Counted from the first letter of the stretch, positions 3-15,863 are shown. The stretch is 64,000 bases of DNA from a bacterium (GCA_963663405.2 CAXXSM010000022.1:99785-163784); one strand, 5' to 3'. The notes: a model not told the origin generated them from the sequence alone. Made by a program: numbers and translations.

Positions 3-1070
3 GGGCTTATTAAGGATGAGGAATGGTCTGAAGGACAAGGCGCTCTTGAATATACCGCGGAGTTAGTGTCGTACCAAATTGGGGAGGTCCGGGACTGGTT
101 ATTCATGTGGGGTATTAACTGGGATCTTGCATGCCAAGATACTGTTATTGCGCTCTATTTATATGATATGAATTCAGGAGAGTTCAGAATTATTAAAAAT
201 GACTGTAACGACCTGGATTCGTTTGGTGGTTTGAACCTGGACGGCAGCAAAGCCGTGTTCGCCGAGACGATGGAAGGCACAGATCAAGGTTCGATTAAGG
301 TTTATGACATTGCCTCAGATCGTATTATTACTGTTAGTACTTTCGAGAGTGTGGATGGAGATTTCGCCGCCTATTATGATACTAACGACAAAATCCTATT
401 TCTCGGCGGTGATGGTGAAATAAAACGGATGGATGGAGATGGTCAAAACGTCATCACCTTACTAAAACCTGAAATTCCATTCCGGTTTCAAGTGTTTTGG
501 CTGTCGCCGGATCGTAAGACCATAGCCGCTGTAGAAAGTTATGAAGGTAGTGGGGATTATGAAACAAACCATTATGAAAGATTGATCGTAATCAATCTGG
601 ATAACACTAACCGCCAAGTTCTTATGGAAAGTTTTTTGGGGGAATGGAACTTTCTGACATGGAAATCTGATTCAAGTGGATTCTTCTACTATTACCATAC
701 CTTCAATGGGGAACCGGAACCAAATCATGCCGCCTATCCACAATATTCACTAGTTGATCTTTCGAAGGATCCGATTGTTCAAAATGATCTATCCAACTCT
801 GATCTCGGAAGCAAAGAAGAGAATCTATGTTTTTATACACCATCCGGCTATTTACTTGGAGTAGTAACAGAAGAGTTGTATGATCCTCAAAGCGGCGCAT
901 TGATTCGTACCTGTCCGGATGGCGTTACATCGGTTTATTCGGGTATCATGGGAATCGATTCTTCTGGAGAGATTTATTTTGCCGATTTCAATGGCGGACA
1001 TTTTTATCAGTTTGATGATATGGATTGCTCTGGGATCATCAATTGGGAATTGTTGTATTCATTTGATTGA
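3..1070 (+). CDS. Acidic beta-propeller-like (TolB-like repeat) protein, 5' truncated by window edge; carries C-terminal W-motif
   Basis: Frame is open from position 3 (GLIKDEEWSEG...) upstream of the GTG at 66. Repeats such as LDGSKAVF, LSPDRKTIA, WKSDSSGFFY. Ends SGIINWELLYSFD. Confidence 0.65.
   Translation, partial: GLIKDEEWSEGQGALEYTAELVSYQIGEVRDWLFMWGINWDLACQDTVIALYLYDMNSGEFRIIKNDCNDLDSFGGLNLDGSKAVFAETMEGTDQGSIKVYDIASDRIITVSTFESVDGDFAAYYDTNDKILFLGGDGEIKRMDGDGQNVITLLKPEIPFRFQVFWLSPDRKTIAAVESYEGSGDYETNHYERLIVINLDNTNRQVLMESFLGEWNFLTWKSDSSGFFYYYHTFNGEPEPNHAAYPQYSLVDLSKDPIVQNDLSNSDLGSKEENLCFYTPSGYLLGVVTEELYDPQSGALIRTCPDGVTSVYSGIMGIDSSGEIYFADFNGGHFYQFDDMDCSGIINWELLYSFD
1029..1070 (+). other. 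C-terminal W-motif copy 1 (SGIINWELLYSFD*)
   Basis: Matches [TVS]-[PAG]-[VI]-x-[DN]-W-x-[LI] but with a longer tail than the other three copies. Confidence 0.55.
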
Positions 1071-1122
1071 AACACGCTTGTAAACCAGACGATTCAGGAA
1101 TCATCGGGAGAGTTTTCATTTC

Positions 1123-2220
1123 ATGAAGATTACCAGAGTAGAAACCTATTTACTCGATATCCCGTTGAAACAACGGGCGATCACGGATTCTCAAAGTTAT
1201 GTGGATTCAGTGGAATTCGTGCAAGTCCGGATCGAAACCGATGAGGGGATCACCGGGTGGGGATTTAATTGGAATTACACCAAAGGCACGCGGGCGGTCA
1301 AAATAATAATTGATGACACATACGCCCCGTTTCTTCCAGGGAAAGATCCCCTGCGGCGGAAGGAGATCATCCAGGAGTTGTATTACAATAATCACTTCAT
1401 TGGACGGGTGGGGATCGCGCGTGTGGGATTATGCGCGGTGGAGATGGCGCTGTGGGATATTCAACTCAAGCAGGCCGGTCTTCCATTATGGAAATATCTG
1501 GGGCCATGCAAGGAGCGGGTGAAAGCCTATAACACGGATGGCGGTTGGCTGACGTGGACGGTGGATGAATTGATCGCTGATATGACGCTGCTGGTAGAGC
1601 GTGGATTCGACGCGGTGAAAATGAAGATCGGGCGTTCCGATCCGCGGGAGGATTACGAGCGCGTGAAAGCGGTACGCAAGGCGCTGGGGGATGGGATTCA
1701 GCTGATGGTCGACGCCAATACGGTCTGGGATTTGAAAACGGCGAAGGTCTGGGGGCGGCGGTTGGAAGAATTCAATATCGCTTGGCTGGAAGAGCCCCTT
1801 CATCCATTCGATAAGCGAGGACACGCAGCGTTGGCGAAAGCGTTGAATGTTCCCATCGCGGTGGGTGAGACGATCTATACCAAATACGATTTTCTGGATT
1901 ATATCGAACTGGGGGCCGTCGATATCGTACAAGCTGATATGACGAAATTGCTGGGGATCGAGGAATGGCTCGAAGTGGCGGCGCTGGCGCGTGCGTACAA
2001 CCTGGAAGTAATTCCTCATACGAACGTGCAGCAAAAGATACATGTCCAACTCGCAGCCGTGTCATCCAACGTTCCAATGGTGGAATATTGCTATGAATCC
2101 CTGGCCGATATTTGGGAAGAGCCGCTTCAAGTGATCGATGGGTATTATACGCTTCCAGAGGCGCCTGGGCTTGGATGTAAATTAACGGATAGGATTTTGG
2201 ATGAATGCCGGGTGGAATAA
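1123..2220 (+). CDS. Mandelate racemase/muconate lactonizing enzyme family (enolase superfamily)
   Basis: N-terminal MKITRVET...VRIETDEGITGWG; KxK motif (VKMKIG); metal ligands in VDAN, LEEP, VGE. Confidence 0.9.
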   Translation: MKITRVETYLLDIPLKQRAITDSQSYVDSVEFVQVRIETDEGITGWGFNWNYTKGTRAVKIIIDDTYAPFLPGKDPLRRKEIIQELYYNNHFIGRVGIARVGLCAVEMALWDIQLKQAGLPLWKYLGPCKERVKAYNTDGGWLTWTVDELIADMTLLVERGFDAVKMKIGRSDPREDYERVKAVRKALGDGIQLMVDANTVWDLKTAKVWGRRLEEFNIAWLEEPLHPFDKRGHAALAKALNVPIAVGETIYTKYDFLDYIELGAVDIVQADMTKLLGIEEWLEVAALARAYNLEVIPHTNVQQKIHVQLAAVSSNVPMVEYCYESLADIWEEPLQVIDGYYTLPEAPGLGCKLTDRILDECRVE

Positions 2221-2353
2221 GCGTTTTCTTTCCAGTCTAGTATTAATCCCATCATTTTTTTCCATCCATTGAAAGATTTTTCCCGCATTCTCGTATTGAT
2301 TGAGTATGGCCTTCTATCAATCACAATCATTTCAACGATAGGGAGAATATGAA

Positions 2354-3241
2354 ATGAAAACATCCTACATACAAACGGCGATTACCCTTGTTCTCATTTT
2401 GTTATGTATTTGGAATACCGGGTGTGGTATCCCATCTGAGAAATTTTCGGAAACGAAGGAATTTACACAAGATGGAAACGGGATTGAAACGATCGACGCG
2501 AAGACGACAAACGGTCACATCTCTTTAATCGCCTGCGCGACGGATCAGATTTACGTTCACGCCAGGAAAGATGTCTACGCTTTCACAATGGAGGAAGCGG
2601 AGGCGTTCGCGGAGAAGGTTGAAATCTTAGTCAAGAAAGACGGGGATACTCTCCGGATTTACAAGGAACAACCGAAAAACACGATCGGGATCAATGTGAA
2701 CGTGCACTTTGATATAACCTGCCCCCAAAACGTTCAGGTCAATCTCGGTTCGACCAACGGAAAAGTTGAATCGAAAGGTGTGGAAGGAGCCGTCACCGCG
2801 TCTTCTACAAATGGCGCGGTTGAGGTGGATGGAGGATCGAAACAGATCTCTCTAAAAACGACAAACGGCTCCGTGAATTTTAAAAACATCACCGGCGCGA
2901 TAAAAGCCAGTTCGACCAACGGCGCTGTGAAAGGAACAATCGAAACATTAACAGACACAGCCCAGCTTTCCACGACGAATGGATCGATCGATGTATCAGT
3001 GGAGGAAGGCGTCGCGCCGATCAAAGCGGGCACGACGAATGGCTCCCTCTCCATCACGCTGCCGGAAGATTATTCAGGCCATCTGGACGCGAAAACATCG
3101 AATGGAAGAATCCATTCTGATTTCGACGTTCAATTTGAGGGAAAAAAGAAGAATCGCGTGGATGGCCCGATCGGTGCAGGAGGAGAAACAGAATTAAGCC
3201 TTCATACGACAAATGGGAATATTAATATTAAGAAACAGTAA
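2354..3241 (+). CDS. DUF4097-like beta-strand repeat protein, probable lipoprotein
   Basis: Signal peptide ending in a lipobox-like NTGC; many [ST]TNG repeats. Confidence 0.8.
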   Translation: MKTSYIQTAITLVLILLCIWNTGCGIPSEKFSETKEFTQDGNGIETIDAKTTNGHISLIACATDQIYVHARKDVYAFTMEEAEAFAEKVEILVKKDGDTLRIYKEQPKNTIGINVNVHFDITCPQNVQVNLGSTNGKVESKGVEGAVTASSTNGAVEVDGGSKQISLKTTNGSVNFKNITGAIKASSTNGAVKGTIETLTDTAQLSTTNGSIDVSVEEGVAPIKAGTTNGSLSITLPEDYSGHLDAKTSNGRIHSDFDVQFEGKKKNRVDGPIGAGGETELSLHTTNGNINIKKQ

Positions 3242-3264
3242 TTCTCTCGTGGTTTGAAAAACAT

Positions 3265-3343
3265 ATAGGGTGGATCGCACTTTATCGACCCACCATTTAT
3301 AATTAATTGATTCGGCGCCTCATAAAGACGCGACCCACCCCAC
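3265..3343. repeat. Inverted pair of REP-like palindromes between convergent genes
   Basis: ATAGGGTGGATCGCACTTTATCGACCCACC (3265-3294) and, on the - strand, GTGGGGTGGGTCGCGTCTTTATGAGGCGCCGA (3343-3312). Confidence 0.55.
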
Positions 3344-3371
3344 GGGGAATCAGTTTTCGTTCCAATGATTG

Positions 3372-4544
3372 TCACACTCCCGATTGCATCTTTTCCATGA
3401 ACTTTGACATTGAGATTACCGTTACATCATCCTTGACCGGAAATTCATCATCACCACCATATACGATGAATTTTTTGGTTGCGCCTATATCCTCGCATGT
3501 CTGGCTGTAATGTTTGTCTAACTTGGGGGCTGACCCATATTTAATTTCCACGGCCCAGACTTCCGATGATGGCATTTTGATCGCGAGATCAATCTCTGCG
3601 CCTGCCGCCGTGCGGTAAAAATAAGTCTCCGCCCGGCGCGGCAGGATAGAGTGGATGTTCTCAACCACAAAACCTTCCCAGCTTTTCCCCAGGATAGGAT
3701 TTGACAGTAGCGCGTCGTAGGTATTTATCCCCAATAACCGGTGCTGGATACCGCTGTCACGGATATAATAACGGGGGGATTTTATCAAGCGTTTCTTGAC
3801 ATTGGCATACCACGGCTCTAACCGTCTGACCAATAGCAAATCCACCAATATATCCATGTAATGATTGATCGCTTTGCGCTGTACTTCCAAATTACTTGCC
3901 AGTTTGCTGACATTTACGGTTTCACCTTGCAAGTGCGCGAGCATCGTCCATAAACGGCGCAGTCTGTTTGCAGGCACACGAAAGCCCATCTGTGGAACAT
4001 CCCGCTCAAGATAAGTACGGATCAGATCTTCAAGCCAATCCATGGCCATATCATCGTCTGCGGCCAAAAAACCGTCTGGAAAACCGCCCCTCAACCAAAG
4101 ATTTTGGAGATCATCTTTATTTTCTCCAATTTCCAACACATTCAAACCACTCAATTCGATGTAGCGGATACGGCCTGCCAAACTCTCTGAAGACTGGCGC
4201 ATCAAATCCATGGACGCAGAGCCTAAAAGCAGGAATTGACCTGATTTTTTGCCTTGCCGCCTATTCTTGTCGATCAGCCCACGCAGGACCTTAAACAAGT
4301 CAGGAGCGCGATGAATTTCATCTAGGATTACCAGTTTATCGTTGTGAGCGCTTAAAAAACTGGTTGGATCGCTGAGTTTCAGCAAATCTTCCGGGGATTC
4401 CAGATCGAGATAGATTGAGTTTTGCTCTTTTGCGATCGTTTTGGCAAGCGTGGTTTTTCCCACCTGACGCGCGCCAAGAAGCGCTACAGCGGGAACCTGT
4501 GTAATGCTCTTTTGGAGTTTATCTATAATCCGTCGCTTTAACAT
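3372..4544 (-). CDS. AAA_14 ATPase with C-terminal DUF4143 (PD-(D/E)xK-like) domain
   Basis: Walker A GARQVGKTT, Walker B ILDEIH, LLGSAS, ESLAGR, C-terminal YFYRTAAGAEIDL...AVEIK. Start assigned at MLKRR (4544). Confidence 0.9.
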   Translation of the reverse strand: MLKRRIIDKLQKSITQVPAVALLGARQVGKTTLAKTIAKEQNSIYLDLESPEDLLKLSDPTSFLSAHNDKLVILDEIHRAPDLFKVLRGLIDKNRRQGKKSGQFLLLGSASMDLMRQSSESLAGRIRYIELSGLNVLEIGENKDDLQNLWLRGGFPDGFLAADDDMAMDWLEDLIRTYLERDVPQMGFRVPANRLRRLWTMLAHLQGETVNVSKLASNLEVQRKAINHYMDILVDLLLVRRLEPWYANVKKRLIKSPRYYIRDSGIQHRLLGINTYDALLSNPILGKSWEGFVVENIHSILPRRAETYFYRTAAGAEIDLAIKMPSSEVWAVEIKYGSAPKLDKHYSQTCEDIGATKKFIVYGGDDEFPVKDDVTVISMSKFMEKMQSGV

Positions 4545-4696
4545 ACCTTGTATTTTGTGCCTAAAAAGCGCAAAATGCAAGGTATAAATTATATTGTAAT
4601 TGATCGGTCATCTGAAGTGATAGATTCCTCCCCAAGAAACGGTGTTTGTACCGGATCAGTAAGGGAGAGATTAAGGGGGTTGTCCCATCTATTCGC

Positions 4697-4770
4697 CGGG
4701 TGGCCAGGACAAGGTTTTTTTTCTGCCCTGGTATAATTTCCAGAACGTAGTCAGGGTATAAAAAAACCTT
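4697..4770. repeat. Intergenic GTAG-REP-like repeat family A, copy 1
   Basis: CGGGTGGCCAGGACAAGG-T8-CTGCCCTGG followed by ATAATTTCCAGAACGTAG; related to 38386-38467, 45155-45236 and 53445-53485. Confidence 0.7.
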
Positions 4771-4797
4771 CAGCCTTCAGTCTAAGCTACCTTCTAC

Positions 4798-5877
4798 CTA
4801 AAACACCACCATTGTTTGTGAATCGGCGGCGTTGCGGAGTTTGAGGACCAGTTCTGTAATGCGGAAGGCGTCTTCGGTGGATAGGATTAATTCTTCTTTG
4901 CCTTCGATGGCGGCAACCATGTTTTTGAATTGGGAGACGCTTTCGCTGGGCTCCACTTCATGCGTTTTTTTTGTTTCGGTGATCAATGTAACTTTTTCAC
5001 CGATTACCTCGACAACGCCTTTGGTTCCCGCGATCCGGAGGCGGTCATCTCCCCATGTGGAGGCAATGTCTGGACGACAGTAATCCAGGCGGATGGATAC
5101 TGTCGCGCCGCTTTCGGCGAGGAGAATCATGTTGGCGGTGTTTTCCATCGCGCCGAGTTCGGGACGTCCAACATTGTTATGAAACGCGGAGCCTTTCACA
5201 AAACGCAGGCCGGTTGTCCAGCGGATGATGTCCAAGGCGTGACAGGCGATGTAGGGGATGGTTCCGGCGAAGGATTCACGGGATTTCACCCAATCGGGGC
5301 GGGTTCCTAGCTTATATGATTTCTGCGCCGTGGCGAGGGTCACTTCGCCGATCACGCCGCTCTGGACGATTTCACGGACCTTGCGGTAATGGCCGTCGAA
5401 CCGCATGTTCAACATCATCGTCAAGACCACACCCGCTTCGTCAACCGCTTTTTTTACCCGTTCTAAATCCTTCAGGTTGGTGGTTAATGGTTTTTCCGTA
5501 TAGATATGAAGCCCTTTTTTGGCGCAGCGGATGAGGGTTTCCGCTGTATCGCCGTGTTGGGTATAGACGGCGGCGATATCGAGGGATTCTTTTTCCAGCA
5601 TTTCGCGGTAATCAGTGTAGATTTTGATTCCCTTGGGGAGAGAATTAAATTTATTACGGTTCGCTTTCTGGCTCGGTTCGGGGACCGCGGCGGCTACCAA
5701 TTTCACGTTGGACATTTCCGGTAATGGATCAAGGGTGTATTTATAATGGCCCTCCATATCGATCCAGCCAAGGCGAAAACCCTTTTTCTCCGCGCTCTTC
5801 GCCATCGCCGGGACCAATGTTCCCACGCCAGCCAACGCGCCGCCTATAAAACGCCGCCGGTTGATTTCATCGATCAT
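4798..5877 (-). CDS. Gfo/Idh/MocA family oxidoreductase with Tat signal peptide
   Basis: NRRRFIGG twin-arginine motif; YTDYREMLEKESLD and HIYTEKP; AAGGAG RBS upstream of ATG at 5877. Confidence 0.9.
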   Translation of the reverse strand: MIDEINRRRFIGGALAGVGTLVPAMAKSAEKKGFRLGWIDMEGHYKYTLDPLPEMSNVKLVAAAVPEPSQKANRNKFNSLPKGIKIYTDYREMLEKESLDIAAVYTQHGDTAETLIRCAKKGLHIYTEKPLTTNLKDLERVKKAVDEAGVVLTMMLNMRFDGHYRKVREIVQSGVIGEVTLATAQKSYKLGTRPDWVKSRESFAGTIPYIACHALDIIRWTTGLRFVKGSAFHNNVGRPELGAMENTANMILLAESGATVSIRLDYCRPDIASTWGDDRLRIAGTKGVVEVIGEKVTLITETKKTHEVEPSESVSQFKNMVAAIEGKEELILSTEDAFRITELVLKLRNAADSQTMVVF

Positions 5878-6114
5878 TTTCTTTCTCCTTCTTTTACTCA
5901 TACATTCATTCGAACCGTTTCCTTCTGTCGACGGTAGATAATCGATCATATCAGGTTTATGGATTTCGTCTACTATCGGAAAGGAATCTCTATTTTATTA
6001 AAAGATAGCTCTTTCGATACTTTGATATTGATTTCTCACATTAAATATGTTAAAAATAGATCGATTCAGCGCATTTCTGCGTTAGAAAATTCATTGTGCT
6101 CCTGGAGGCTTTCG

Positions 6115-7647
6115 ATGAACGGTCTTCGATTCAAGACTTTCGCGTGGTTTGCTTTTTTGGGATTCATCGTCTTTGGATTGTCAACACCGGCTTTCTCGGC
6201 GGTAAAACCCTGGGCTTCAACGGCTCATGTGGATTTCTTCGTGGAAGATGGCGGTTTTACTCCGCTGGTGGATGGTTTTATCGATGCGGAGGAATGGCGG
6301 TTTTCCCCGCAGAGTTCCGGCGCTTCCGGTTCGTTCTGGTATGTCCGGTGGAATGCGGCGCAGGATGATGAAGGCGTCGTTCAGACCGGTCTTTTCAGTT
6401 CCGATTCGGGGGATGAACCGTACGATACGAGTGATTGTTCGTTCTATGTCTATACTCTGTATGATGATGAATATTTATACATCGCCGTTTCCGTGACGGA
6501 TGATATCACTTCATTCAACGATACGGGGGAAGGAACCGAAGACGGCTCGACGTGGAACGATGATTCTGTGGAGATCTTCATCGACGGTGATTACAGCCAA
6601 TTCGAGACCAGTCTCACCGCCGCTTCCGCTGACGATCAAGCGAGAGAATTCGCCACGGGCGGACAGTTTGTTCTGACGAATAACAATTCGTGGAGAGACA
6701 ACGAAGCGGGGAATCCTACATTTGGAGAAGATGGGGATTGGTATGCGCGCGCCGAATGGACCGATGTGGGCTATGATGTTGAATTCAAGATCAAACTCTC
6801 CAAGATCGGGAATCCCACCAAGGGATCAACCATTGGATTTAACATCGCTGTGAACGACGACGATGATGACGGCGCCACAACCTCACCAGCCCGGTATCAG
6901 CTGCGGTGGGCGGGAGAAGCGCATGTAGAATCAACATATGGAGCCCTCTATTTCGGCCCGCGTGAAGTGACAGCGCCGTTGGTGGATGGGCCGGTCACGA
7001 TCGATGGTGTGATGGATGAAGCGGATTGGGCGAAAGCGGCTGTGGAGCCTGTGACTCCTTATAGTGGAGTGATTATCAACGATCAATTGCCCGTCTCATC
7101 GGAAGATCTCTCCTATACCTCATATATTATGCACGACGACACATGGCTTTACGTCGGTTTTATCGTGATGGATGAGGATGTCATCACCGACACGGAACCG
7201 GAAGGATCGCATAACGCCAACACATGGCATGATGATTCAATGGAAGTGTTCATCGATCAGGATCTCGATCATGGGGCCGATACGAGCAACAATCGCTATG
7301 GAAGCGCCGATTTGATCGAAGGACAGTTTGTTCTCACCGCCGGAAACGCGACTCGTGACGCCAACACAACCAATGTGCCATTGATCGGAGAGACAGATGA
7401 TGACGATTGGTGGTGCTGGGCGACTCTGACTGAAAGAGGATGGCAGGGAGAAATGCGTTTTAAGAAGGAAATGATTGTAGGATTTGACCAAATTGGATTT
7501 ACCATGGCCGTTAATGATGACGATCCATCGGATGTGGAGACCGACCATCAACTCCGATGGCAAGGCGCCCCACACGTGGAATCAAGCTATGGTGTGTTGA
7601 TTCTTGGGGAAGCCCCCGTCCCTGTATCGGATTGGATGATACATTAA
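6115..7647 (+). CDS. Secreted tandem CBM9-like (DOMON-like sugar-binding) protein with C-terminal W-motif
   Basis: GGAGG RBS and signal peptide. Two homologous domains (YDDEYLYIAVSVTDD / HDDTWLYVGFIVMDE; WNDDSVEIFID / WHDDSMEVFID; IGFNIAVNDDD / IGFTMAVNDDD). Confidence 0.8.
   Translation: MNGLRFKTFAWFAFLGFIVFGLSTPAFSAVKPWASTAHVDFFVEDGGFTPLVDGFIDAEEWRFSPQSSGASGSFWYVRWNAAQDDEGVVQTGLFSSDSGDEPYDTSDCSFYVYTLYDDEYLYIAVSVTDDITSFNDTGEGTEDGSTWNDDSVEIFIDGDYSQFETSLTAASADDQAREFATGGQFVLTNNNSWRDNEAGNPTFGEDGDWYARAEWTDVGYDVEFKIKLSKIGNPTKGSTIGFNIAVNDDDDDGATTSPARYQLRWAGEAHVESTYGALYFGPREVTAPLVDGPVTIDGVMDEADWAKAAVEPVTPYSGVIINDQLPVSSEDLSYTSYIMHDDTWLYVGFIVMDEDVITDTEPEGSHNANTWHDDSMEVFIDQDLDHGADTSNNRYGSADLIEGQFVLTAGNATRDANTTNVPLIGETDDDDWWCWATLTERGWQGEMRFKKEMIVGFDQIGFTMAVNDDDPSDVETDHQLRWQGAPHVESSYGVLILGEAPVPVSDWMIH
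7618..7647 (+). other. C-terminal W-motif copy 2 (VPVSDWMIH*)
   Basis: Last 9 residues of the CBM9-like protein. Confidence 0.75.
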
Positions 7648-7694
7648 ATCGGATTGATTCTGTTCCTTTATATAATATTGTAATAACATCTTCT

Positions 7695-7781: not shown

Positions 7782-8060
7782 TCAAGACGAATTCATCGAG
7801 TTTCTATATTCCTCTATTAATTCATTGGGAATCCCTTTCAATGCGATCATGATGAGCAACGGGACGATAATTAAATCGTCAATGTGTCCAATGATTGGAA
7901 TCCAATCGGGAATAAGATCGATCGGGGAGAGGAGATATCCAACGGCGGCGGCGAGCAGCCATTTCGTCCATACGGGAGTCCGATTGTCTTTAAGGAGGGA
8001 TTGGTAGAGTTTGATTTCCTGTTTGATTTGATGGGCTATTAATCGGAGTTTATTGAACAC
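7782..8060 (-). CDS. YkvA/DUF1232 family small membrane protein
   Basis: YLLSPIDLIPDWIPIIGHIDD signature. Confidence 0.9.
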   Translation of the reverse strand: MFNKLRLIAHQIKQEIKLYQSLLKDNRTPVWTKWLLAAAVGYLLSPIDLIPDWIPIIGHIDDLIIVPLLIMIALKGIPNELIEEYRNSMNSS

Positions 8061-8104: not shown

Positions 8105-8719
8105 TTAGAAATTCGGTGGGAAATTGCCGTTGTACATGATGCCGTCAACTTTGAGGTTTCTTACCACGGATGAATCGCCTCCGTACCAGAAGATATCCCC
8201 ATTGCTGACTAAGCCGTTGCTGGTTCTGTAAGTGTTTCCATATCCATTGTTCCGTTGGATGCCGAAAAAGGGCTGGGCGGAATAAAGGCCGTTTTCCGCC
8301 AAATCGGGTCCACGAGAGAATATATTGTAAGCGACGTTTTTCTTGCCCCGGCTGGCGACGCCGGTTTCGTACGACGCTTCCTGCCCTTCCGCTCGTAAGA
8401 TCACGGAATCTTGGAACGGATCGTGTGGAAGAGATGACATATAGGCCACAGGCGCTGTCAGGAAAAAGAGTCCCGCTTCGGATTTCGCGCGGCGGCCTGT
8501 AAAAATATCATCCTCGGATTCGGGGGGATAGCCATTGTTATCCAAATTATACATTTCATGGGCTTGAGCCAACGCTCTGATATCCGATTGAACGCGGGCG
8601 ATTTTCGCCCGAATCTGGGCGTTGAGAAAATTCGGCACGGCGATCGCGGCCAGAATGCCAATGATGGCGACGACGATTAATAACTCGATTAGAGTAAATC
8701 CATATTGCGAGTGTTTCAT
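8105..8719 (-). CDS. Prepilin-type N-terminal cleavage/methylation protein (GspG-like pseudopilin)
   Basis: G|FTLIELLIVVAIIGILAAIAVPNF; YNLDNNGYP; DPF; SRGPD. Confidence 0.9.
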   Translation of the reverse strand: MKHSQYGFTLIELLIVVAIIGILAAIAVPNFLNAQIRAKIARVQSDIRALAQAHEMYNLDNNGYPPESEDDIFTGRRAKSEAGLFFLTAPVAYMSSLPHDPFQDSVILRAEGQEASYETGVASRGKKNVAYNIFSRGPDLAENGLYSAQPFFGIQRNNGYGNTYRTSNGLVSNGDIFWYGGDSSVVRNLKVDGIMYNGNFPPNF

Positions 8720-8833: not shown

Positions 8834-8864
8834 TCGTATATTAAAAAAATTACGTCACATTTAT

Positions 8865-8897
8865 TTATTCAAATATAGACCAATCGCAGACAGCCGT
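8865..8897 (-). other. C-terminal W-motif copy 3 (TAVCDWSIFE*)
   Basis: Last 10 residues. Confidence 0.75.
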
Positions 8898-10379
8898 ATC
8901 AGTTCCTTCCGCTGGATTGACGAACGACATAACGACAATATCTCTCGTTCCCAATCCTTTACCAGGAACCGCCCGTGATCCCCAGGTAATGGAAACTCGG
9001 TCGTTAGTGATCGCCGGAATCGCTTCACCGGGATCGCCTGCGGTCGCCTCGCCGGTTGTGGGATCGGTGAATTCGGGCAGCGGGTGAACGACAAAGGCGT
9101 CGGTGGCGGGTGTGCCGTCCGCGTTGAAGATCCGGGCGACGACGCTTTCTGTTCCACTGTCGAGATCCGCGGCTCCATCATGCCATGAAATCACAAACGT
9201 GCCATTGGGCGCCATAGCGCATCGTTCCCGTCCTAAACTTCGGAAATCGGCGTGTTGTGTAACGGCGATGAAGGGAGTGATCGGTTCGCCTTGATCATCC
9301 CAGACACGAGCCATAATCTGGGTCATATCCGCCATATCCGCAGGATATCCCAAATCGACAGTGGCGTTCACGGTATGGACCGTGACGAACCGGTCTTCTC
9401 CACTCGCGTCGAACCAAGAGGGACGGATTCCAGTGGCTTCATCCGTCGCTGAGAATTCCTTGACGAGATTGCCGTCGTTATCATAAATAACGCCTTTGCT
9501 ACTACTCGTTCCACTAATGGCGCTTTTATCATCATAAAATATACAGACAAAACCGTTGGCTAAACCGCCTAAACGTAGATCTTGCTGTTGACCGGTTAAA
9601 TCGTCTGTCGCAAAGAATTCATCTTTAAATCGTGTTCCATCTCCGTTGAAGATATTAAGTAAGGGAACTCGTGATCCTCCATCTGGATAATCCGGATCGT
9701 CTACGTAGCGGTGATCCCGCGCTACGGTTCCAATGACGAATTTACCATCGCTAAGCCAGCAACAATCCCATTCACGATGGCCCGCGCTGAACTGAGAGAT
9801 AGAGATTGGTTCGGGGGTGGTTGGTTCCAACTGATCGTTGAACAGTTTGAAGAATCCGTGTCCCTGCCCATCGTCCTCGTGAATTCCATCCTCGTCAATG
9901 ACAGTATCAGGGATCACGGCGTCCGTCCCAAATAATTGTCCATATTGCCATGTGGCGGCGCCAAGGAATCCACCACCGACGCGATCGGCTTTATTCAGGG
10001 TCCAGTTCGTGTTTCCGCCGGTGTTGGCGCCGACAATAATATCGTCAGCGTTGTCTTCCGTGATCGTTGGGAAGACCAACGCGCCGGACGCGTCGATACC
10101 ATTCACATGATGGCTTCCCAGGCGATTGACCCAAAAGACCGTTGTTGATCCATTGTTGAGAATGGAAATTTTTGGTTCGCGATCATCCCCTGTGGTTTGC
10201 CCTAGAATCACAGGACCTTCCGTTGTTATGGCTTCCAGACCAGCGACATCGAATGTGGGTGTTTCGTCGATAATCGTGATCTCTTCCCCAAGTGGTTGAG
10301 CCACACAGGGATGATAAACCAATAAAGAAAACGCCGACACACACACGAAAAACAATGCAAATCGTAAGACTCTCATCAT
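8865..10379 (-). CDS. Secreted acidic beta-repeat protein of unknown function with C-terminal W-motif
   Basis: Signal peptide; recurring units FKLFNDQ, LNIFNGDG, VIYDNDG, ARVWDDQG, ARIFNADG; ends TAVCDWSIFE. Confidence 0.75.
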   Translation of the reverse strand: MMRVLRFALFFVCVSAFSLLVYHPCVAQPLGEEITIIDETPTFDVAGLEAITTEGPVILGQTTGDDREPKISILNNGSTTVFWVNRLGSHHVNGIDASGALVFPTITEDNADDIIVGANTGGNTNWTLNKADRVGGGFLGAATWQYGQLFGTDAVIPDTVIDEDGIHEDDGQGHGFFKLFNDQLEPTTPEPISISQFSAGHREWDCCWLSDGKFVIGTVARDHRYVDDPDYPDGGSRVPLLNIFNGDGTRFKDEFFATDDLTGQQQDLRLGGLANGFVCIFYDDKSAISGTSSSKGVIYDNDGNLVKEFSATDEATGIRPSWFDASGEDRFVTVHTVNATVDLGYPADMADMTQIMARVWDDQGEPITPFIAVTQHADFRSLGRERCAMAPNGTFVISWHDGAADLDSGTESVVARIFNADGTPATDAFVVHPLPEFTDPTTGEATAGDPGEAIPAITNDRVSITWGSRAVPGKGLGTRDIVVMSFVNPAEGTDTAVCDWSIFE

Positions 10380-10442
10380 GCTGCCCCTTTCTTGTTTCAT
10401 ATTCTGTTTTACTAAAAAGATTCAATAGATTTACAATTTTAT

Positions 10443-10470
10443 ATTATGCTATAAAACCGATAGAAGTCAA
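10443..10470 (-). promoter_or_regulatory. Putative sigma-70 promoter
   Basis: TTGACT-N16-CATAAT on the - strand in an AT-rich intergenic region. Confidence 0.4.
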
Positions 10471-10739
10471 CAAGACTCCATCGAGAATGGACAATCGATC
10501 ATCAAATTTTTTACTAAAAGAAAAGCATATATTTATTCAGCGTATATTAATTTTAAATTAATGATGATTAATTTTAGGAATACAGGGCTGGAAGATTCTA
10601 ACAAACCGATGGTTTTGAATGCGTTCATTAGCCGAATGATTCTTGTTTTTTGATAGATCGTTCCATTATCTATCTTATTTCCCTTTCATTTCAACTAAAA
10701 TAAAGTGAATGATATCTGATTGAAATAAGGGAAAGATGG

Positions 10740-11366
10740 ATGGTCAATCCAAAATGGAAGATCGTCACTCTTGGTTATCGTAATGAAAACGTGGATGGGG
10801 AGGAGGGAACTCATCCGCCGATCCAGGGGTGCACGTCTACGTTGATTGAAGTGGAAAATCGGCGGATTGTTGTGGATCCGGGATTGGATTCTATTCAAGA
10901 TTACGCAACGACACTCTTCCACCAAACCGGATATAATCCGGATGAGATCGATACGGTTTTTTTGACACATTTTCATGCGAATCACCGGCGCAGCCTCCAT
11001 CTCTTCCGAAAATCGGTCTGGTTGATGTCCCGTTCAGAAATCCGCTGGCGCCAGAAACACGATGAGACAAATGAAGAAGAGCGGGATGTTCTCGCCCGGA
11101 TCGTTCCGGCTGAGGAGCACGCGCTGCCCGGCGTGGAACTCGTTCCCACTCCCGGCCATACGCATGGCTCCACCTCGTTGTTGTTTGAAACGCGGGAAGG
11201 AATGATCGTCGCCGCAGGGGACGCGGCGTTGACGTTCGAGCATTTTGAGGATCGCCACGTATCTGAACATGCGGAAGACATTAAAGAGGCGAAACGTTCG
11301 ATCGACCGGATCGCGAAGATGGCCGATCTCGTGATTCCCGGCCATGAGAATTATTTTGTCGTTTGA
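10740..11366 (+). CDS. MBL-fold metallo-hydrolase
   Basis: IVVDPG, THFHANH (HxHxDH variant), TPGHT, GDA, IPGH. Confidence 0.85.
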   Translation: MVNPKWKIVTLGYRNENVDGEEGTHPPIQGCTSTLIEVENRRIVVDPGLDSIQDYATTLFHQTGYNPDEIDTVFLTHFHANHRRSLHLFRKSVWLMSRSEIRWRQKHDETNEEERDVLARIVPAEEHALPGVELVPTPGHTHGSTSLLFETREGMIVAAGDAALTFEHFEDRHVSEHAEDIKEAKRSIDRIAKMADLVIPGHENYFVV

Positions 11367-13804
11367 GAGAGAGCCGCACCAGCGGGTTGAAATCGCGCGA
11401 CCGTCACACCGGAACCGCCTTCGTACTCAGAACCGTTTTCATACGATGTCACGACGGGATTATCCTTTAAGAATTGGCGGACGGCGCGCCGCAGTGTTCC
11501 CGTGCCGTGTCCATGTACGATTATGACGTAGGGGATATTCGAGAGAAACGCGTGATCGATGAATTTCTGCAACAGAGGAGTCATTTCATCCACGGTCATC
11601 CCATGAATGTCGAGTTGATATTCAATACTTTGGGGACGATCGACGTTGATCCCTCCGGTTTTGACTTTGGTATTCTTCTTTTTGGGGGCGAGAACGGCCA
11701 GGACGCGTTCGCTTTTGATCCGCAAATTCATAGAACTGACGCTGACCTCCAATTCGCCTTTGTCAGGCCAGAGTTTCGTGACGGTTCCTGGTTCGGTGAG
11801 ACCACCGATGCGGACGCGGACGTTAGGTTTGAGTTGATCCCAGGACCAATCTTCCCGTTCGAAGGTTTCCACGACCGGCTCGTGTTTTCCCTGGGCAAAA
11901 ACGGTTTTCGCTTGCTCTAATTCACCCCGCAGACTAGTAAGGACGGTTTCCGCTGGGGCGGATTCGCTGGACCGCTCGACGAGTCGCTCCAGTTTTTCCT
12001 TCCATTGTTTTTGGTAACCACGTTCTTGTTTATCGAGTTGTTCGAGCCGCCGTTCCAGTTCCCGGATCACGCCCTGGGCTTTTCGTTCGGCCCGTTGGAT
12101 GACGTCGTTCGCTTCGTTCCTCGCTTTGCGCATTCGGTTTTCACGTTCGATGCGGAGATTTTTTGCTTTTTCAAATTCCCTTTCGGCTTCTTGGCGCTGG
12201 GCGTTGGAGGCGCGCAATTCTTCTCCTAGCTGGGTTAAGAGATCTTCAGGGGCGGCGCCACGGTGTTGGAGGTTTTTCTTCGCATCTTGGATAATCGAAT
12301 CCGGTAATCCCAACCGGCCGGCGATCTGGATGGCGTTGCTCTGTCCGGGAAGCCCCATTGTGAACGCGAATGTGGGTTGAAGCGATTGTAGATCGAATTC
12401 CATCGATCCATTCTCAACGCCTTCTGTTTGATGCGCGAAGACTTTCAAATCCTGCAGATGCGTCGTAACAAAGTACATGGCGCCTTTCTCGTGCAGTTGT
12501 TTCAAGATCGCGCCGGCCAGAGCGCCGCCTTCGGCCGGATCGGTGCCCGAGCCCAATTCATCCAGTAAGACAAGACTGCCGGAGCCGGTTTTTTCGATGA
12601 TGGAACGGATATTGGTGATGTGGGAAGAGAAAGTGGAAAGACTTTGTTCAAGGCTTTGTTCGTCTCCGATGTCAGCGCCGATCGATCGAAAGACGGGCAA
12701 TTCGGTCGAATCATCCGCTGGGATGTGCATTCCACATTGCGCCATCAGCGCTAAAAGCCCAATCGTTTTTAAAACGACTGTTTTTCCACCTGTGTTCGGA
12801 CCGGTGATGACCAATCCACGCGTTTCGGGTTCGAATCGAAGGTTTAAGGGGACCACCCGGACCTTACCATGTTGGACCAGCAACAGGGGATGGCGTCCAT
12901 TGACGATGGAGATTGTATTCTCCACCATGACCGGCGCGTTCATCTGGTGTTTGAAACTGAATCGCGCTTTGGCTGCAATCAAATCCAATTGGCGGAAGAT
13001 TTCCAGATTGTAGAGCAGTTCATCGTAATATTGACCAATCAGCGCGGTCAATGCGCAGAGGATTTTCCGGATTTCGATTTCCTCTTCGCGATGAAGACTT
13101 TTAAGCCGGTTGCCGTCTTCGACCAATTCGAGGGGTTCGATGAAGACGGTGGTTCCGGTTGTGGAGCGGTCGTGGATGATGCCGCGCAACTTATTTTGAT
13201 AGCGCGCGTCGATGGGGAGGACATACCGGCCTTCACGCTGGGTGTAATACGATTCCTGCATATAATCTTTGAGCCTTCCACGCATGAGCCGTTCAAGGCG
13301 CCGGACGAGGGCGCCGCGTTGTAGATGGATCGATTTTCGAACGCGGGATAATTCGTGGGAGGCGCTATCGCGAATCTGTTTCTTTTCGTCAAAGACTTTG
13401 TTGATGGCTTTCTCAATTTCGGGATGGGGAATCAGGCGGCGTCCATAGATCTGAATGTGGGGCGCGTCATTCTGGATTCCTTCCACCGCTTTGCGGATTC
13501 GGACCGTGGCGGCGCAGGTTTCACCGATGATTAGAATTTCGGAAGGATCAAGCATCGCGCCGGAGAGGAGGCTGCGTCCAAGAGATTCACGGATATCATA
13601 GAATCCTTCGAGAGGAAGAGGGCGGTTTGTTTCCCACAACCGGACCATTTCGGTCACTTCGCGAAGCGCGAAGCGGATCTCTTCCAACGAGAGGGACGGC
13701 GCCAGCGATTGGATGGCCTCCCGGCCCAGCGGGGAAACCGCGAACTGACTCAGAATGTCTTTGAGTTTATGAAATTCCAGTACCCGGAGAGCGTGTTCAT
13801 CCAT
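11351..13804 (-). CDS. mutS2: Endonuclease MutS2 with Smr domain
   Basis: TGPNTGGKT, DIGDEQSLEQSLSTFSSH, LLDELGSGTDP, TTH; C-terminal LDIHG...IVHGHGTG. Confidence 0.95.
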   Translation of the reverse strand: MDEHALRVLEFHKLKDILSQFAVSPLGREAIQSLAPSLSLEEIRFALREVTEMVRLWETNRPLPLEGFYDIRESLGRSLLSGAMLDPSEILIIGETCAATVRIRKAVEGIQNDAPHIQIYGRRLIPHPEIEKAINKVFDEKKQIRDSASHELSRVRKSIHLQRGALVRRLERLMRGRLKDYMQESYYTQREGRYVLPIDARYQNKLRGIIHDRSTTGTTVFIEPLELVEDGNRLKSLHREEEIEIRKILCALTALIGQYYDELLYNLEIFRQLDLIAAKARFSFKHQMNAPVMVENTISIVNGRHPLLLVQHGKVRVVPLNLRFEPETRGLVITGPNTGGKTVVLKTIGLLALMAQCGMHIPADDSTELPVFRSIGADIGDEQSLEQSLSTFSSHITNIRSIIEKTGSGSLVLLDELGSGTDPAEGGALAGAILKQLHEKGAMYFVTTHLQDLKVFAHQTEGVENGSMEFDLQSLQPTFAFTMGLPGQSNAIQIAGRLGLPDSIIQDAKKNLQHRGAAPEDLLTQLGEELRASNAQRQEAEREFEKAKNLRIERENRMRKARNEANDVIQRAERKAQGVIRELERRLEQLDKQERGYQKQWKEKLERLVERSSESAPAETVLTSLRGELEQAKTVFAQGKHEPVVETFEREDWSWDQLKPNVRVRIGGLTEPGTVTKLWPDKGELEVSVSSMNLRIKSERVLAVLAPKKKNTKVKTGGINVDRPQSIEYQLDIHGMTVDEMTPLLQKFIDHAFLSNIPYVIIVHGHGTGTLRRAVRQFLKDNPVVTSYENGSEYEGGSGVTVARFQPAGAALSQTTK

Positions 13805-13888
13805 TCCGTATAGCTCGTTATGTAATACGGCGCCGAGAAGGATTTCGTAAGGAGAAATTCAGGCGAGTGATGTCAACAAAATAGAATC

Positions 13889-13910
13889 AACGCCTAATAT
13901 TTTAGGCGTT
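13889..13910 (-). terminator. Hairpin downstream of the small - strand ORF
   Basis: AACGCCTAA-TATT-TTAGGCGTT. Confidence 0.4.
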
Positions 13911-13941
13911 TTATTCCACTTTCGGCCTTTCTAGGTTCTTC

Positions 13942-14232
13942 TTACATTGTTTCCTGAGGACGCGGTTCACGTATTTCTTTGTTCGTTACCCATTTGATAA
14001 AATATCGAATATGGCCGATCAATCCCACGTGTTTTTTCCAATTTTCGATAAAGATGTCACAGCGTGGACAACCGTTTTTGGTCGGTTTTTCGGCGCGGTT
14101 CATCAAGACAAAAAGTTTTCGTTCACGATGACTGGGCCGTGGCCGCATGGGTGTCATTATTTCTGGACAATGAAAGTCCCCATCTTTGAAGGGGCATATA
14201 AAATCAATCTGCCGTATTGGTTTATCGCTCAC
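13942..14232 (-). CDS. Small hypothetical Cys-containing protein (96 aa)
   Basis: AGGGGAG RBS 8 nt before GTG at 14232; CPF..HCP..CPRC; fills an otherwise empty gap. Confidence 0.5.
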   Translation of the reverse strand: MSDKPIRQIDFICPFKDGDFHCPEIMTPMRPRPSHRERKLFVLMNRAEKPTKNGCPRCDIFIENWKKHVGLIGHIRYFIKWVTNKEIREPRPQETM

Positions 14233-14417
14233 AATCAGAACTCCCCTTTTTGGTCTATAATCGACTGGATAGTATAGCATCACGGCCGCATTGGAGTAAT
14301 GTCCCGCTGTCGAAATTATTGAACTCCCATTGACAGACGAATGGTTTCGGAAACAATCATACAAAGTACGAACAAATGGCGTAGCAGCGCCCTATTTTTT
14401 CATTAAAAGGAGACAAA

Positions 14418-15863
14418 TTGATGACTGGGAGTAAGACAATCGAGATTTCTTCGTTGGTTCTTTCCCTATTCATGATGTGTTTCATCACGGGAGTCTGTGT
14501 AGGGGCGGACTTGACTGTAAAGCAGGACGGCTCTGGGGACTACCAAACCGTCCAAGAAGCGCTGGACGCGGCGTCGGAAGGAGACACCGTGATCGTCTCA
14601 GCGGGTGTGTATGAGGAGGATATTAATATTGGACATTTCAACGTGCCGTCCGAAAAGAAAGATGGGATCACCCTTGTTGCGGCGGATGGAGAAGATGTTG
14701 AAATTAGAGCGAGTAATACAGAACTTCGCTTCGCCGTTCTAGCGGCGGCCGGAAACGATCCAGGCCCCATGGACCGGATGGGTTTTATCATTCACGGTAA
14801 TAATATCACGGTAGAAGGAATTCGTTTTGTTCAACCGTCAGACGAAATTAACAACTTGGAGGTCAATACCGCAATCGCAGTAGGCGGCGCGGATGTAACA
14901 TTCCGCAACTGCGAGATTGTTGGCCCTGGACTGGAAGTAGACGAAGATATCGTGGGATTGGCGATCGCTATTTTTGATGTCCAAGGGATTATGGAAGGGA
15001 ATCCTACAATCGCGACGAATCTACTTTTAGAAGATTGCACGTTTACGAATGTTCCCTACGGCTTCGCCAACACGGATTTCCTTAGCACAGGGCTGCCGCC
15101 GGAAGTGACTCTCAATAACTGCGAGTTTTTCGGAACTGGAAACGCGATAGAAATCGACGCGGGCACCACTCATCTGATCGATTGTTACATGCATGATAAC
15201 GCGCAGGGTTTTCATATTTCCGATGATACCACCACCATTACGAACTGTATCATTGAAAACAACACAGTACATGGTATAGAGATTGACGATCAGGCGATCG
15301 AAGATGATGAACCGCCGGAGAATCCAGTCGTAACGATTGATGGCTGTACAATCTCAAATAATGGAACCGAGACGAACCATTATGGGCTGCTGATGGATAT
15401 CGGAACATTGACAATGACCAATACGATTATCCAAGGCAGTTCCGGCCCCAATGTGTTTTTTGGAACGGAATCGGGGCGGGAGAATATAGCCACGCTCGAT
15501 CACTGCGATCTCTATCAATCGAAAAGCGGTGTCGCGGTAAACACCGTCGCCGAATCGCAGGACATCATCACTTTCACGATGACCAATTCCATTGTTGTGG
15601 ATACAAAAGGCATTATCAACAGCGCGGATATTCTTGGCGATTTCACGGTGAATTACTGTGATGTCTATACGACTGACGCGCAGTTCGAAGGGCCGTTTCT
15701 CAGCACGGAGAATAATCTTAACGTCGATCCGGGCTATGTTGACGCGGCGAACGGGAATTTCTTCCTGCTGCCGGATTCTCAAGTCGCTACCGCCGGGGGA
15801 AATGGAACCTATATGGGTTCAAAAGGCGTTACGACTCCCGTCGGAGATTGGATGCTGCGGTAA
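14418..15863 (+). CDS. Secreted right-handed parallel beta-helix (pectin lyase-like) protein with C-terminal W-motif
   Basis: TVKQDGSGDYQTVQEALDAA start motif; repeated NC/DC-x-I/F units; DPGYVD...FFLLPDS; AGGAG RBS. Confidence 0.85.
   Translation: MMTGSKTIEISSLVLSLFMMCFITGVCVGADLTVKQDGSGDYQTVQEALDAASEGDTVIVSAGVYEEDINIGHFNVPSEKKDGITLVAADGEDVEIRASNTELRFAVLAAAGNDPGPMDRMGFIIHGNNITVEGIRFVQPSDEINNLEVNTAIAVGGADVTFRNCEIVGPGLEVDEDIVGLAIAIFDVQGIMEGNPTIATNLLLEDCTFTNVPYGFANTDFLSTGLPPEVTLNNCEFFGTGNAIEIDAGTTHLIDCYMHDNAQGFHISDDTTTITNCIIENNTVHGIEIDDQAIEDDEPPENPVVTIDGCTISNNGTETNHYGLLMDIGTLTMTNTIIQGSSGPNVFFGTESGRENIATLDHCDLYQSKSGVAVNTVAESQDIITFTMTNSIVVDTKGIINSADILGDFTVNYCDVYTTDAQFEGPFLSTENNLNVDPGYVDAANGNFFLLPDSQVATAGGNGTYMGSKGVTTPVGDWMLR
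15834..15863 (+). other. C-terminal W-motif copy 4 (TPVGDWMLR*)
   Basis: Last 9 residues. Confidence 0.75.

Follow-up and report, generated by a model that had tools for sequence, protein, structure and literature searches.

LPXTG/sortase, PEP-CTERM/exosortase, GlyGly-CTERM/rhombosortase and IPTL-CTERM signals are short C-terminal signatures found on many unrelated exported proteins. They are lineage-restricted, with carriers numbering from dozens to hundreds in a genome, and each of them has a transmembrane helix and a basic tail behind its motif. The PEP-CTERM signal has a PEP motif and an Arg-rich end, and the IPTL-CTERM signature is IPTLSEWG-like. In Bacteroidota, proteins of many unrelated folds that are exported by Sec end in the T9SS C-terminal domain (CTD; Por_Secre_tail, TIGR04183/PF18962), a folded β-sandwich of about 70-100 residues that takes them over the outer membrane and onto the surface. 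The β-signal of outer-membrane barrels and the YxF ends that DegS senses combine an aromatic end, hydrophobic residues just before it and a free C-terminus that is read in the periplasm; in the β-signal, which forms the last strand of the barrel, the hydrophobic positions alternate. The WxL domain (PF13731) of Firmicutes, about 150-190 residues long with two WxL motifs, places W-x-L near the C-terminus of non-covalently attached surface proteins. In type IVb pilus systems the export signal of TcpF and CofJ is reported to be a short, disordered N-terminal peptide of the mature periplasmic exoprotein. It binds the minor pilin TcpB/CofB of a type-4-filament machine, and the cargo gene adjoins pilin genes (PMC9565799, PMC10120004). 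The TcpF signal is also described there as cleaved upon secretion (PMC10120004).

A preliminary description of a 64,000-nucleotide stretch of bacterial DNA (the window) had reported near-identical C-terminal peptides on four unrelated exported proteins. All four peptides were present where it had placed them, and three proved to be true instances of a tag when scored with a position matrix built from the C-termini of the window's genome (threshold 12). The exported tandem-CBM9 protein (5959..7647, plus strand; open reading frame and translation, Pfam CBM9_1 in two stretches) ends in VPVSDWMIH (7618-7644, plus strand, matrix score 25.3; stop codon 7645-7647), and its true start is likely the internal MNGLRF... 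signal peptide. The exported protein encoded at 8865..10400 (open reading frame and translation), on the minus strand, which had been left unstated for this third example, gave zero matches in Pfam and NCBIfam. It ends in TAVCDWSIF plus one extra residue, E (8868-8897, minus strand, matrix score 21.6 at offset 1). The exported right-handed β-helix/DUF5123 protein (14418..15863, plus strand, assigned by Pfam) ends in TPVGDWMLR (15834-15860, plus strand, matrix score 21.8), and its Trp at -4 is invariant across 21 aligned orthologues.

The remaining example, the first of the four in that description, did not hold. It concerned an exported β-propeller-like protein, the 3′ part of whose gene lies at 3..1070 on the plus strand, the whole gene starting 474 nt before the window. 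The best matrix score of its ending SGIINWELLYSFD (1029-1070) was 5.1, none of 16 database homologues had the tag, and an ending of the family's own, GEIYFAD.NG..F, was common to the homologues. Two further observations on the window proteins were borne out: the four are acidic (D+E 15.0-17.6%, K+R 2.9-6.3%), and signal-peptide-like N-termini, noted before on the three with visible N-termini, are present on all four. The exported enzymes named as untagged (GH95, ThuA, 3-keto-disaccharide hydrolase and the β-helix protein at 27512) have different endings, as described.

The tag is real, strictly terminal and modular. Of the 6692 proteins predicted in the genome of the window, that of an uncultured bacterium, 178 carried the C-terminal sequence [TV]-[APS]-[VI]-x-[DN]-W-x-[LIVM]-[YFH]-COOH, with 0-4 extra residues allowed. 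It was flush with the C-terminus in 144 proteins, against 0.044 predicted for the 6692 proteins from the internal rate, and was followed by one extra residue in 26 and by two to four in 8 (34 in total). Internal matches numbered just 15 in about 2.28 million positions. The DNA pattern GTNNNNRAYTGGNNNNTNYWYTRR, whose count is independent of gene calling, occurred 62 times in this genome, its reversed control twice. Conservation spans the last nine residues only, and the linker before them is rich in Pro, Gly, Thr and Glu. Hydrophobic residues occupy positions -1, -2, -4 and -7, and the final residue was Tyr, Phe or His in 132 of 138 proteins. The consensus given previously was close to ours, except that position -5 is looser than [DN].

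In the structure models the tail is disordered and lies outside the fold. Residues 554-562 of the tandem-CBM9 protein and residues 475-480 of the β-helix/DUF5123 protein had AlphaFold (AF2) pLDDT values below 50 and were modelled without secondary structure, so that in two of two models the tail is predicted not to be an integral strand of its domain.

The carriers are diverse. After trimming of the tails the 178 proteins fell into 76 dissimilar clusters, 53 of them singletons, the two largest holding 47 and 23 proteins. When 60 representatives of the clusters were annotated with Pfam, the matches comprised CBM9, β-helix, FG-GAP, LamG, cohesin, WD40/PD40, FGE-sulfatase, CotH, esterase and LRR families. 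Among exported proteins the tag is confined to a subset set apart by its composition. Signal-peptide-like N-termini were found on 134 of 178 carriers (75%) versus 1844 of 5020 others (Fisher p 1e-24), by a heuristic that, like the gene calls, is crude and was positive in 37% of the other proteins; one clear carrier was of the Tat type. Carriers had a K+R content of 5.6%, and 99.4% of them were net negative; the corresponding values for the remaining signal-peptide-like proteins were 9.8% (p 3e-71) and 72%. Only 2 of 178 carriers had a membrane-helix-like segment past residue 60. Whole exported families were nearly or entirely free of the tag: it was present on 1 of 48 sulfatases, on none of 95 Gfo/Idh/MocA proteins (62 with a twin-arginine motif) and on none of 19 3-keto-disaccharide hydrolases. 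In family 3, 23 of 55 members had it. The large untagged exported families (Gfo/Idh/MocA, sulfatases) probably stay periplasmic.

We compared the tag with the systems outlined above. With the LPXTG-like signals it shares the short C-terminal signature on many unrelated exported proteins, the restriction to particular lineages and the number of carriers per genome; unlike them it has neither helix nor basic tail, the protein ending three residues past the Trp. For these reasons, and because Pfam and NCBIfam gave no match on the tails (0 of 10 for NCBIfam), an LPXTG/sortase signal was ruled out. So was a PEP-CTERM signal, the tails being free of a helix; TIGR02595 gave no matches among 74 first-look candidates, the control genomes being silent too. 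The P-x-x-S-[DE]-W part of the tag bears a loose resemblance to the IPTL-CTERM signature, and the best TIGR04174 match (13.9 bits, E 0.97) lay below the 20.5-bit cut-off and at an unrelated place. The T9SS CTD is likewise C-terminal on Sec-exported proteins of many folds, whereas the tag is nine residues long, is disordered in the models and has no sequence similarity to that domain; TIGR04183 had no matches, in controls as well. SprA_N (PF14349) was not found in the 82% complete genome of the window, nor in any of 14 control genomes. A β-signal would agree with the terminal aromatic residue or His, but the hydrophobic positions of the tag do not alternate and its carriers are soluble multidomain folds. 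WxL (PF13731) had no Pfam match on the four window proteins and was not one of the 25 families listed when the 60 representatives were annotated. Searches of Pfam, NCBIfam and the literature found no model or paper describing the tag, which looks like a hitherto undescribed address label for export.

The tag was also followed across genomes by means of the DNA pattern. In the window's class 31 of 34 genomes had at least six matches, the controls 0-4. Among the Sumerlaeota, which genome classification puts in a different phylum, 30 of 75 genomes had at least six matches, and of 364 other bacterial genomes sampled none was enriched except two belonging to the Sumerlaeota. The tag is conserved in orthologues and across two phyla, and 'lineage-specific', as it had been called, is too narrow in scope. 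With about 180 unrelated exported proteins in one genome and many more in relatives and in Sumerlaeota, the phenomenon is far larger than the window had suggested.

In the window's phylum tagged genes tend to adjoin pseudopilin genes. In the window's genome the GspG-like pseudopilins, a family with 141 members there, were alone in being over-represented among the neighbours of tagged genes (28 of 320, p 1.3e-10). By motif, 9.6% of tagged genes but 1.7% of other genes had an adjacent pseudopilin gene; gaps within these pairs were 6-160 nt, and most pairs were co-directional. One such gene lies in the window at 8105..8719 on the minus strand; it exceeds the Pfam cut-offs for N_methyl and T2SSG and stays under that of TIGR01710. 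It has the same direction as the tagged gene at 8865-10400 and lies 146 nt downstream. A second GspG-like gene (48200..48826, minus strand, Pfam N_methyl and T2SSG) has no tagged neighbour, which indicates that the pairing of tag and pilin is partial. Adjacent pilin-like genes were found at 7 of 16 tag loci in genome G021 (binomial p 2e-5 against a rough expectation of 6%), and the replication in G015 was weaker (4 of 21 loci, p 0.015); both expectations are rough estimates from first-look counts, and the genomes, being related, are not independent. About 84-90% of tagged genes in G000 had no pilin neighbour. In Sumerlaeota just 1 of 16 fetched tag loci (G064 and G383) had a pilin-like neighbour, the 16 loci examined for the second tag of G446 all lacked one, and T2SSG-like gene counts did not correspond to tag presence across 75 Sumerlaeota genomes. 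The window's genome has at least seven secretin genes; a search of it, at 82% completeness, found no GspC (PF11356).

In a general sense the tag is very probably a localisation tag of exported proteins. Export or docking to a surface scaffold had been the proposal of the preliminary description, and it is supported: chance frequency, internal positions, cytoplasmic carriers and an integral strand, the observations named there as refuting it, were not what we found. Export or docking itself is inferred. In the mechanism we propose, tagged proteins would first pass the inner membrane through Sec or, rarely, Tat, and would fold in the periplasm. A receptor would then read the free C-terminal peptide, for which a free carboxylate at the end of the tag would be needed, and would send the protein over the outer membrane, to be released or displayed on the surface; untagged exported proteins would remain in the periplasm. 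We give about even chances to the tag being a sorting signal of this kind, with a putative destination beyond the outer membrane. The likeliest candidate for the reading machinery would be a type II secretion-like (type-4-filament) system, a tentative assignment modelled on the case of TcpF, whose disordered terminal signal binds a minor pilin. As in TcpF and CofJ, a terminal segment, here the last 6-9 residues of the protein, is predicted to be disordered. Pilin-related genes are the only enriched neighbours, but most carriers have none beside them. The tag, in contrast, is C-terminal instead of N-terminal and serves about 180 proteins rather than one cargo per system, and its binding to a pilin is putative.

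The same residues could instead serve to hold proteins on the surface after export by any route, through non-covalent docking on a receptor or scaffold (outer-membrane protein, S-layer, pilus-like fibre or LPS) or through insertion of the Trp, Leu and Tyr side chains into the outer leaflet. The tag would then be a minimal counterpart to dockerin or WxL-type anchoring. Binding and scaffold modules among the carriers (CBM9, LamG, cohesin, FG-GAP, LRR) agree with such a role, the invariant aromatic residue, the aliphatic residues and the terminal aromatic would suit burial in a groove or interface, the acidic, Lys-poor composition marks a common physical environment, and the nearby pilin-like genes might reflect attachment to a fibre. 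We consider retention somewhat unlikely as the function of the tag: no candidate scaffold is at hand, and retention alone fails to explain why the tag takes the place of the T9SS CTD in homologues (see below), though that domain also attaches proteins. Retention and sorting over the outer membrane are compatible, not mutually exclusive, and inseparable on present data.

PDZ-type domains read free C-termini with a hydrophobic or aromatic end. The strict anchoring of the tag at such an end would suit a periplasmic C-terminus-binding protein, a PDZ-bearing or S41-type processing protease or a stress sensor. To such a protein the tail would be a pro-peptide removed on maturation, a degron or a mark of cargo in the wrong place, comparable to the YxF ends of outer-membrane proteins by which DegS is activated. 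An S41/Tricorn-C1 peptidase gene is present in the window (57168-58283), and the reported cleavage of the TcpF signal points the same way. It is however hard to rationalise why about 2.7% of the proteome should bear a pure degron that orthologues in two phyla have kept and that is restricted to one compositional class, and S41 or PDZ genes were not among the enriched neighbours of tagged genes. We regard this reading as improbable; recognition of this kind could also form one step inside a sorting pathway. That the tag is no signal at all, and merely caps shared folds or reflects paralogy in a few expanded families, can hardly be maintained. The clusters of 47 and 23 carriers would fit paralogy, but 76 unrelated clusters, conservation limited to nine residues behind a Pro/Gly/Thr/Glu-enriched linker, the disorder of the tail in both models and the variable occurrence of the tag within families (sulfatases, family 3) have already largely refuted it.

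Two clues bear on the destination beyond the outer membrane that sorting by the tag would entail. Chitin is insoluble, and a chitinase such as the tagged GH18 enzyme of Sumerlaea must therefore act outside the cell. This 1048-residue protein ends in ..AVSSWELY and the orthologue in G064 in ..AVEEWELY; the smaller GH18 proteins, two per Sumerlaeaceae genome, are untagged. In Bacteroidota homologues of a tagged β-helix family of Sumerlaeota (E 6e-20 to 3e-4, coverage 77-89%) the T9SS C-terminal domain (PF18962) replaces the tag at the same end of the protein.

The preliminary description had treated four C-terminal peptides of the window as a single motif. All four peptides are present, at the ends of the propeller protein (3..1070, plus strand), the CBM9 protein (5959..7647, plus strand), the ORF 8865..10400 on the minus strand, which encodes a protein without a Pfam family, and the beta-helix protein (14418..15863, plus strand). 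When scored with the matrix derived from the proteome, three of the tails reached 21.6-25.3, whereas the propeller tail, SGIINWELLYSFD, reached 5.1 and was rejected as an example of the tag: none of 16 propeller homologues ends in the motif, and they share a family-specific ending instead. The high scores of the three tails and the genome scan indicate that the observation holds for three of the four proteins and extends to the whole proteome.

The assembly of the window's genome, G000, comprises 8.44 Mb in 170 contigs, is 82% complete and contains the window at C22:99785-163784. Genes were called with a simple, home-made hexamer-likelihood caller, which yielded 6692 genes; errors in start codon assignment have no effect on the C-termini, because these depend on the stop codons alone. 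At position -4, counted from the C-terminus, tryptophan occurred in 287 proteins, a 2.6-fold enrichment. Iterative refinement of a position matrix on the endings led to [TV]-[APS]-[VI]-x-[DN>SEH]-W-x-[LIVM]-[YFH]-COOH. Every position of every G000 protein was scanned for the nine-residue core at a threshold of 12. The core was found exactly at the C-terminus in 144 of the 6692 proteins, with one additional residue after it in 26 and with two to four additional residues in eight, but at only 15 of the approximately 2.28 million other positions. At this internal rate, chance would yield 0.044 terminal matches; the motif is thus far above chance at the C-terminus and hardly ever internal. A DNA pattern that requires no gene calls (V-x-[DN]-W-x-Φ-[YFH]-stop) gave 62 matches in G000 and two in the reversed control. 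One of the 15 internal matches lies in the window: an untagged exported protein (61605-63476, plus strand) carries TLPVADWYVYP at about residue 546, 68 residues before its end (matrix score 17.0), which may be a chance occurrence or a relic.

In the sequence comparisons and structure models the tail is an appendage and not part of a fold. Conservation is confined to the last nine residues, and the preceding 15 show a slight excess of Pro, Gly, Thr and Glu. For the beta-helix protein, AlphaFold (21-sequence alignment) gave a model with a mean pLDDT of 88, in which residues 475-480 have pLDDT values below 50 and are predicted to have no secondary structure, yet Trp477 is invariant in the alignment. 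The CBM9 protein gave a weaker model (mean pLDDT 64), in which residues 554-562, which correspond exactly to the tag, are unstructured and lie past the last strand of the domain. A tail folded as an integral strand of its domain, the alternative named in the preliminary description, was thus seen in neither model.

When the tails were trimmed, the 178 carriers fell into 76 clusters without detectable similarity to one another, of which 53 were singletons. Among 60 cluster representatives, Pfam identified CBM9, right-handed beta-helix, FG-GAP, LamG, cohesin, WD40/PD40 propeller, FGE-sulfatase, CotH, esterase and LRR domains; many representatives had no family at all. The N-termini of the carriers resemble Sec signal peptides. 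The anticipated enrichment among exported proteins was observed with a crude, home-made signal-peptide heuristic, which was positive for 134 of 178 carriers versus 1844 of 5020 other proteins (Fisher p 1e-24); the 37% positives among the non-carriers show that the heuristic is unspecific. Many of the negative carriers are cut by contig ends or have a misplaced start. A twin-arginine leader was clear in one carrier, and a lipobox-like site was present in only one.

The carriers also differ in composition from other signal-peptide-like proteins: they contain less Lys and Arg (5.6% versus 9.8%, p 3e-71) and more Asp and Glu (14.9% versus 11.7%), and 99.4% of them are net negative, versus 72% of the others. 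The tag discriminates among exported proteins. It is absent from all 95 Gfo/Idh/MocA oxidoreductases of G000, 62 of which have RR motifs, and from all 19 3-keto-disaccharide hydrolases, and it is present on one of the 48 sulfatases of this large, sulfatase-rich genome; in an LRR-like family 23 of 55 members are tagged, and in another family 14 of 17.

Next we looked at the distribution of the tag across genomes. The tail, with its tryptophan invariant, has been kept in 20 orthologues of the beta-helix protein encoded by other metagenome-derived genomes; a search of genome contigs with the beta-helix protein confirmed no relative. The DNA pattern finds roughly one tag in three (in G000, 62 of 178), so that the following counts are underestimates and vary with codon usage. 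In the class of G000, 31 of 34 genomes had 6-55 matches (controls 0-4), counts that come from related genomes and not from independent samples; fewer matches were found in the class members G026 (three), G028 (one) and G033 (five). The pattern was also counted in 366 bacterial genomes representing about 260 other families; only two, G064 (nine matches) and G383 (seven), stood out, the rest having at most four. These two genomes belong to one family, and their matches are genuine tags on signal-peptide proteins (AGVADWALF, SGVSDWNLY and others). One G383 protein bears the source name Candidatus Sumerlaea chitinivorans, and the relatives of this protein bear the name Sumerlaeaceae. In Sumerlaeota as a whole 30 of 75 genomes, counted irrespective of kinship, had at least six matches (controls 0-4), and whole families were at background. 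According to an excerpt of PMC9324843, OLB16/Hinthialibacterota was earlier placed in Omnitrophota.

Three orthologues in a beta-helix family that is tagged in Sumerlaeota (P0054, P0056 and P0058) end in PVEL..F.[IL][ED], which replaces the Trp tag. This second tag, in its fullest form (L)PVEL[SD]xFx[VIL][ED]-COOH, occurs on signal-peptide proteins of varied size. The corresponding DNA pattern had 5-20 matches in nine of the 75 Sumerlaeota genomes and none in the control, except for one match in a single genome. All 16 loci fetched from the Sumerlaeota genome G446 code for signal-peptide proteins that differ in size and end in LPVELDxFxV[ED] (examples L195-L208). Some Sumerlaeota genomes have both tags; in G000 the DNA pattern detected no second tag. 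In both tags position -4 is aromatic and positions -2 and -7 are aliphatic, which suggests that they are two versions of one system.

How folded proteins are selected to cross the outer membrane is well understood only for systems with a clear signal, for example the T9SS C-terminal domain or motifs of the sortase type. The Trp tag does not qualify as an LPXTG, PEP-CTERM or IPTL-CTERM signal, because it has no helix, no basic tail and no match to a model. It also differs from the T9SS C-terminal domain (PF18962/TIGR04183), which is a folded domain, and it lacks the defining features of the outer-membrane beta-signal. The comparison with curated sorting signals, proposed in the preliminary description, gave no model that matches the tail: NCBIfam matched none of ten tails at E-values up to 10, Pfam yielded nothing relevant, and for the four whole window proteins no model covered the tail. 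A search of the main texts of openly accessible papers found no description of such a tag, and excerpts of PMC9324843 and PMC8092238 do not mention one. The tag would belong among the C-terminal protein-sorting signals, with an architecture unlike that of any curated one.

Two observations bear on the destination of the carriers. In the tagged beta-helix family of Sumerlaeota mentioned above, the Bacteroidota homologues (E 6e-20 to 3e-4, 77-89% coverage) end in PF18962 instead of the tag. The Bacteroidota-like matches to the window's own beta-helix protein (P0024-26; E 1e-4 to 3e-5, 9-13% coverage) were too weak to use. The Sumerlaea genome encodes a large multidomain GH18 chitinase of 1048 aa with a signal peptide, whose last residues are NTAVSSWELY; the G064 orthologue terminates in NSAVEEWELY. 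As chitin is insoluble, the tagged chitinase must act outside the outer membrane. The tag is absent from two smaller GH18 proteins.

The best-supported reading is that the peptide acts as a sorting tag on periplasmic intermediates. Tagged intermediates would be directed either through the outer membrane or to the cell surface, and exported enzymes without the tag would remain in the periplasm. The known case closest in mechanism is the export signal of TcpF and CofJ, a disordered terminal segment that, according to the abstracts of PMC9565799 and PMC10120004, hooks onto a minor pilin of a type IVb pilus. The abstract of the latter describes substrate recognition in type II secretion as 'not well defined'.

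All-against-all comparison revealed one family enriched beside tagged genes, 141 GspG-like pseudopilins (N_methyl + T2SSG) of about 200 residues with conserved LTTPVAY..S.P.DPF and SNGL.S.G.I motifs near the C-terminus. This family accounted for 28 of 320 immediate neighbours of tagged genes in G000 (hypergeometric p 1.3e-10), and the pairs were mostly co-directional, with gaps of 6-160 nt. The window contains one such pair on the minus strand, the tagged gene at 8865-10400 and the pseudopilin gene at 8105-8719, and a further family member at 48200-48826 (minus strand). Directly downstream of the pair lies a small co-directional DUF1232 gene (7782-8060, minus strand). The association was found at seven of 16 loci in G021, which represents another family of the same order, and, more weakly, at four of 21 loci in the relative G015. 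At least seven secretin genes (PF00263) are encoded in the single 8.4-Mb assembly of G000; they include C118:113062-114390, C109:14199-15596, C18:29369-31021, C29:1151-3163, C60:10457-11896 and C23:66436-69198, with fragments on C133 and C38, and several lie in operons with GspK-like and pseudopilin-like genes. GspC was not found in this 82% complete assembly. Searches for SprA_N and the T9SS C-terminal domain gave no match in G000, and both were silent in the control genomes too.

Tentatively, and by analogy with TcpF/CofJ, the leading candidate is a type II secretion-like route, given that pseudopilin genes are enriched beside tagged genes and that secretins are numerous. A simple pilin model is opposed by the lack of a pilin neighbour at most carriers, by the single tag locus with such a neighbour among 16 in Sumerlaeaceae, and by the numbers of T2SSG-like genes in Sumerlaeota, which do not follow the tag: a relationship between pseudopilin number and tag presence seemed plausible in five genomes but failed across the 75 Sumerlaeota genomes. 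First-look counts of T2SSG-like genes are 128 in G015, 196 in G021, 45 in G026, 32 in G028 and 18-137 in Sumerlaeota. When the window's pseudopilin, stripped of its N-terminal helix, was co-folded with the 40 C-terminal residues of the tagged protein encoded beside it, the run scored 0.02 (mark 0.32) and returned no verdict, which counts neither for nor against the model. Two less likely readings are that the tag serves purely for docking at the surface or that the tail is recognised by a C-terminal protease or a PDZ protein; either process could also be a step of the same pathway as sorting.

If the peptide is indeed a sorting tag, it would allow extracellular enzymes to be predicted by a simple sequence rule, among them chitinases and binding modules that are of interest to biotechnology, and would offer a handle for receptor discovery. 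It is present on 2-3% of the proteome and conserved in two phyla whose uncultured members degrade polysaccharides. The second tag variant of some Sumerlaeota would then be a natural experiment, in which the receptor could be identified by co-variation, and a true pseudopilin link would suggest a role for the large GspG-like expansions in these and related phyla. In its most far-reaching and rather doubtful form, the proposal is that the tag represents the first general linear signal for type II secretion-like (type-4-filament) export. A pseudopilin or an associated component would read the free C-terminus and so route roughly 100-200 folded proteins in each genome through secretins, in two phyla or more, and the interchangeable second tag (PVEL[SD]xFx[VIL][ED]-COOH) would reveal a co-evolving pair of tag and receptor.

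Two other loci of the window were recorded. An exported Peptidase_S41/Tricorn_C1 protein of the C-terminal processing protease family is encoded at 57168-58283 (plus strand); it is of note because such proteases read C-termini, and no link to the tagged genes was found. At 28817-30681 (minus strand) two genes overlap, one for a 417-aa protein with a Walker-A-like GPNGSGKSN and the other for a 224-aa protein; by eye they look like a pair of an AAA-ATPase and a small partner as found in defence systems.
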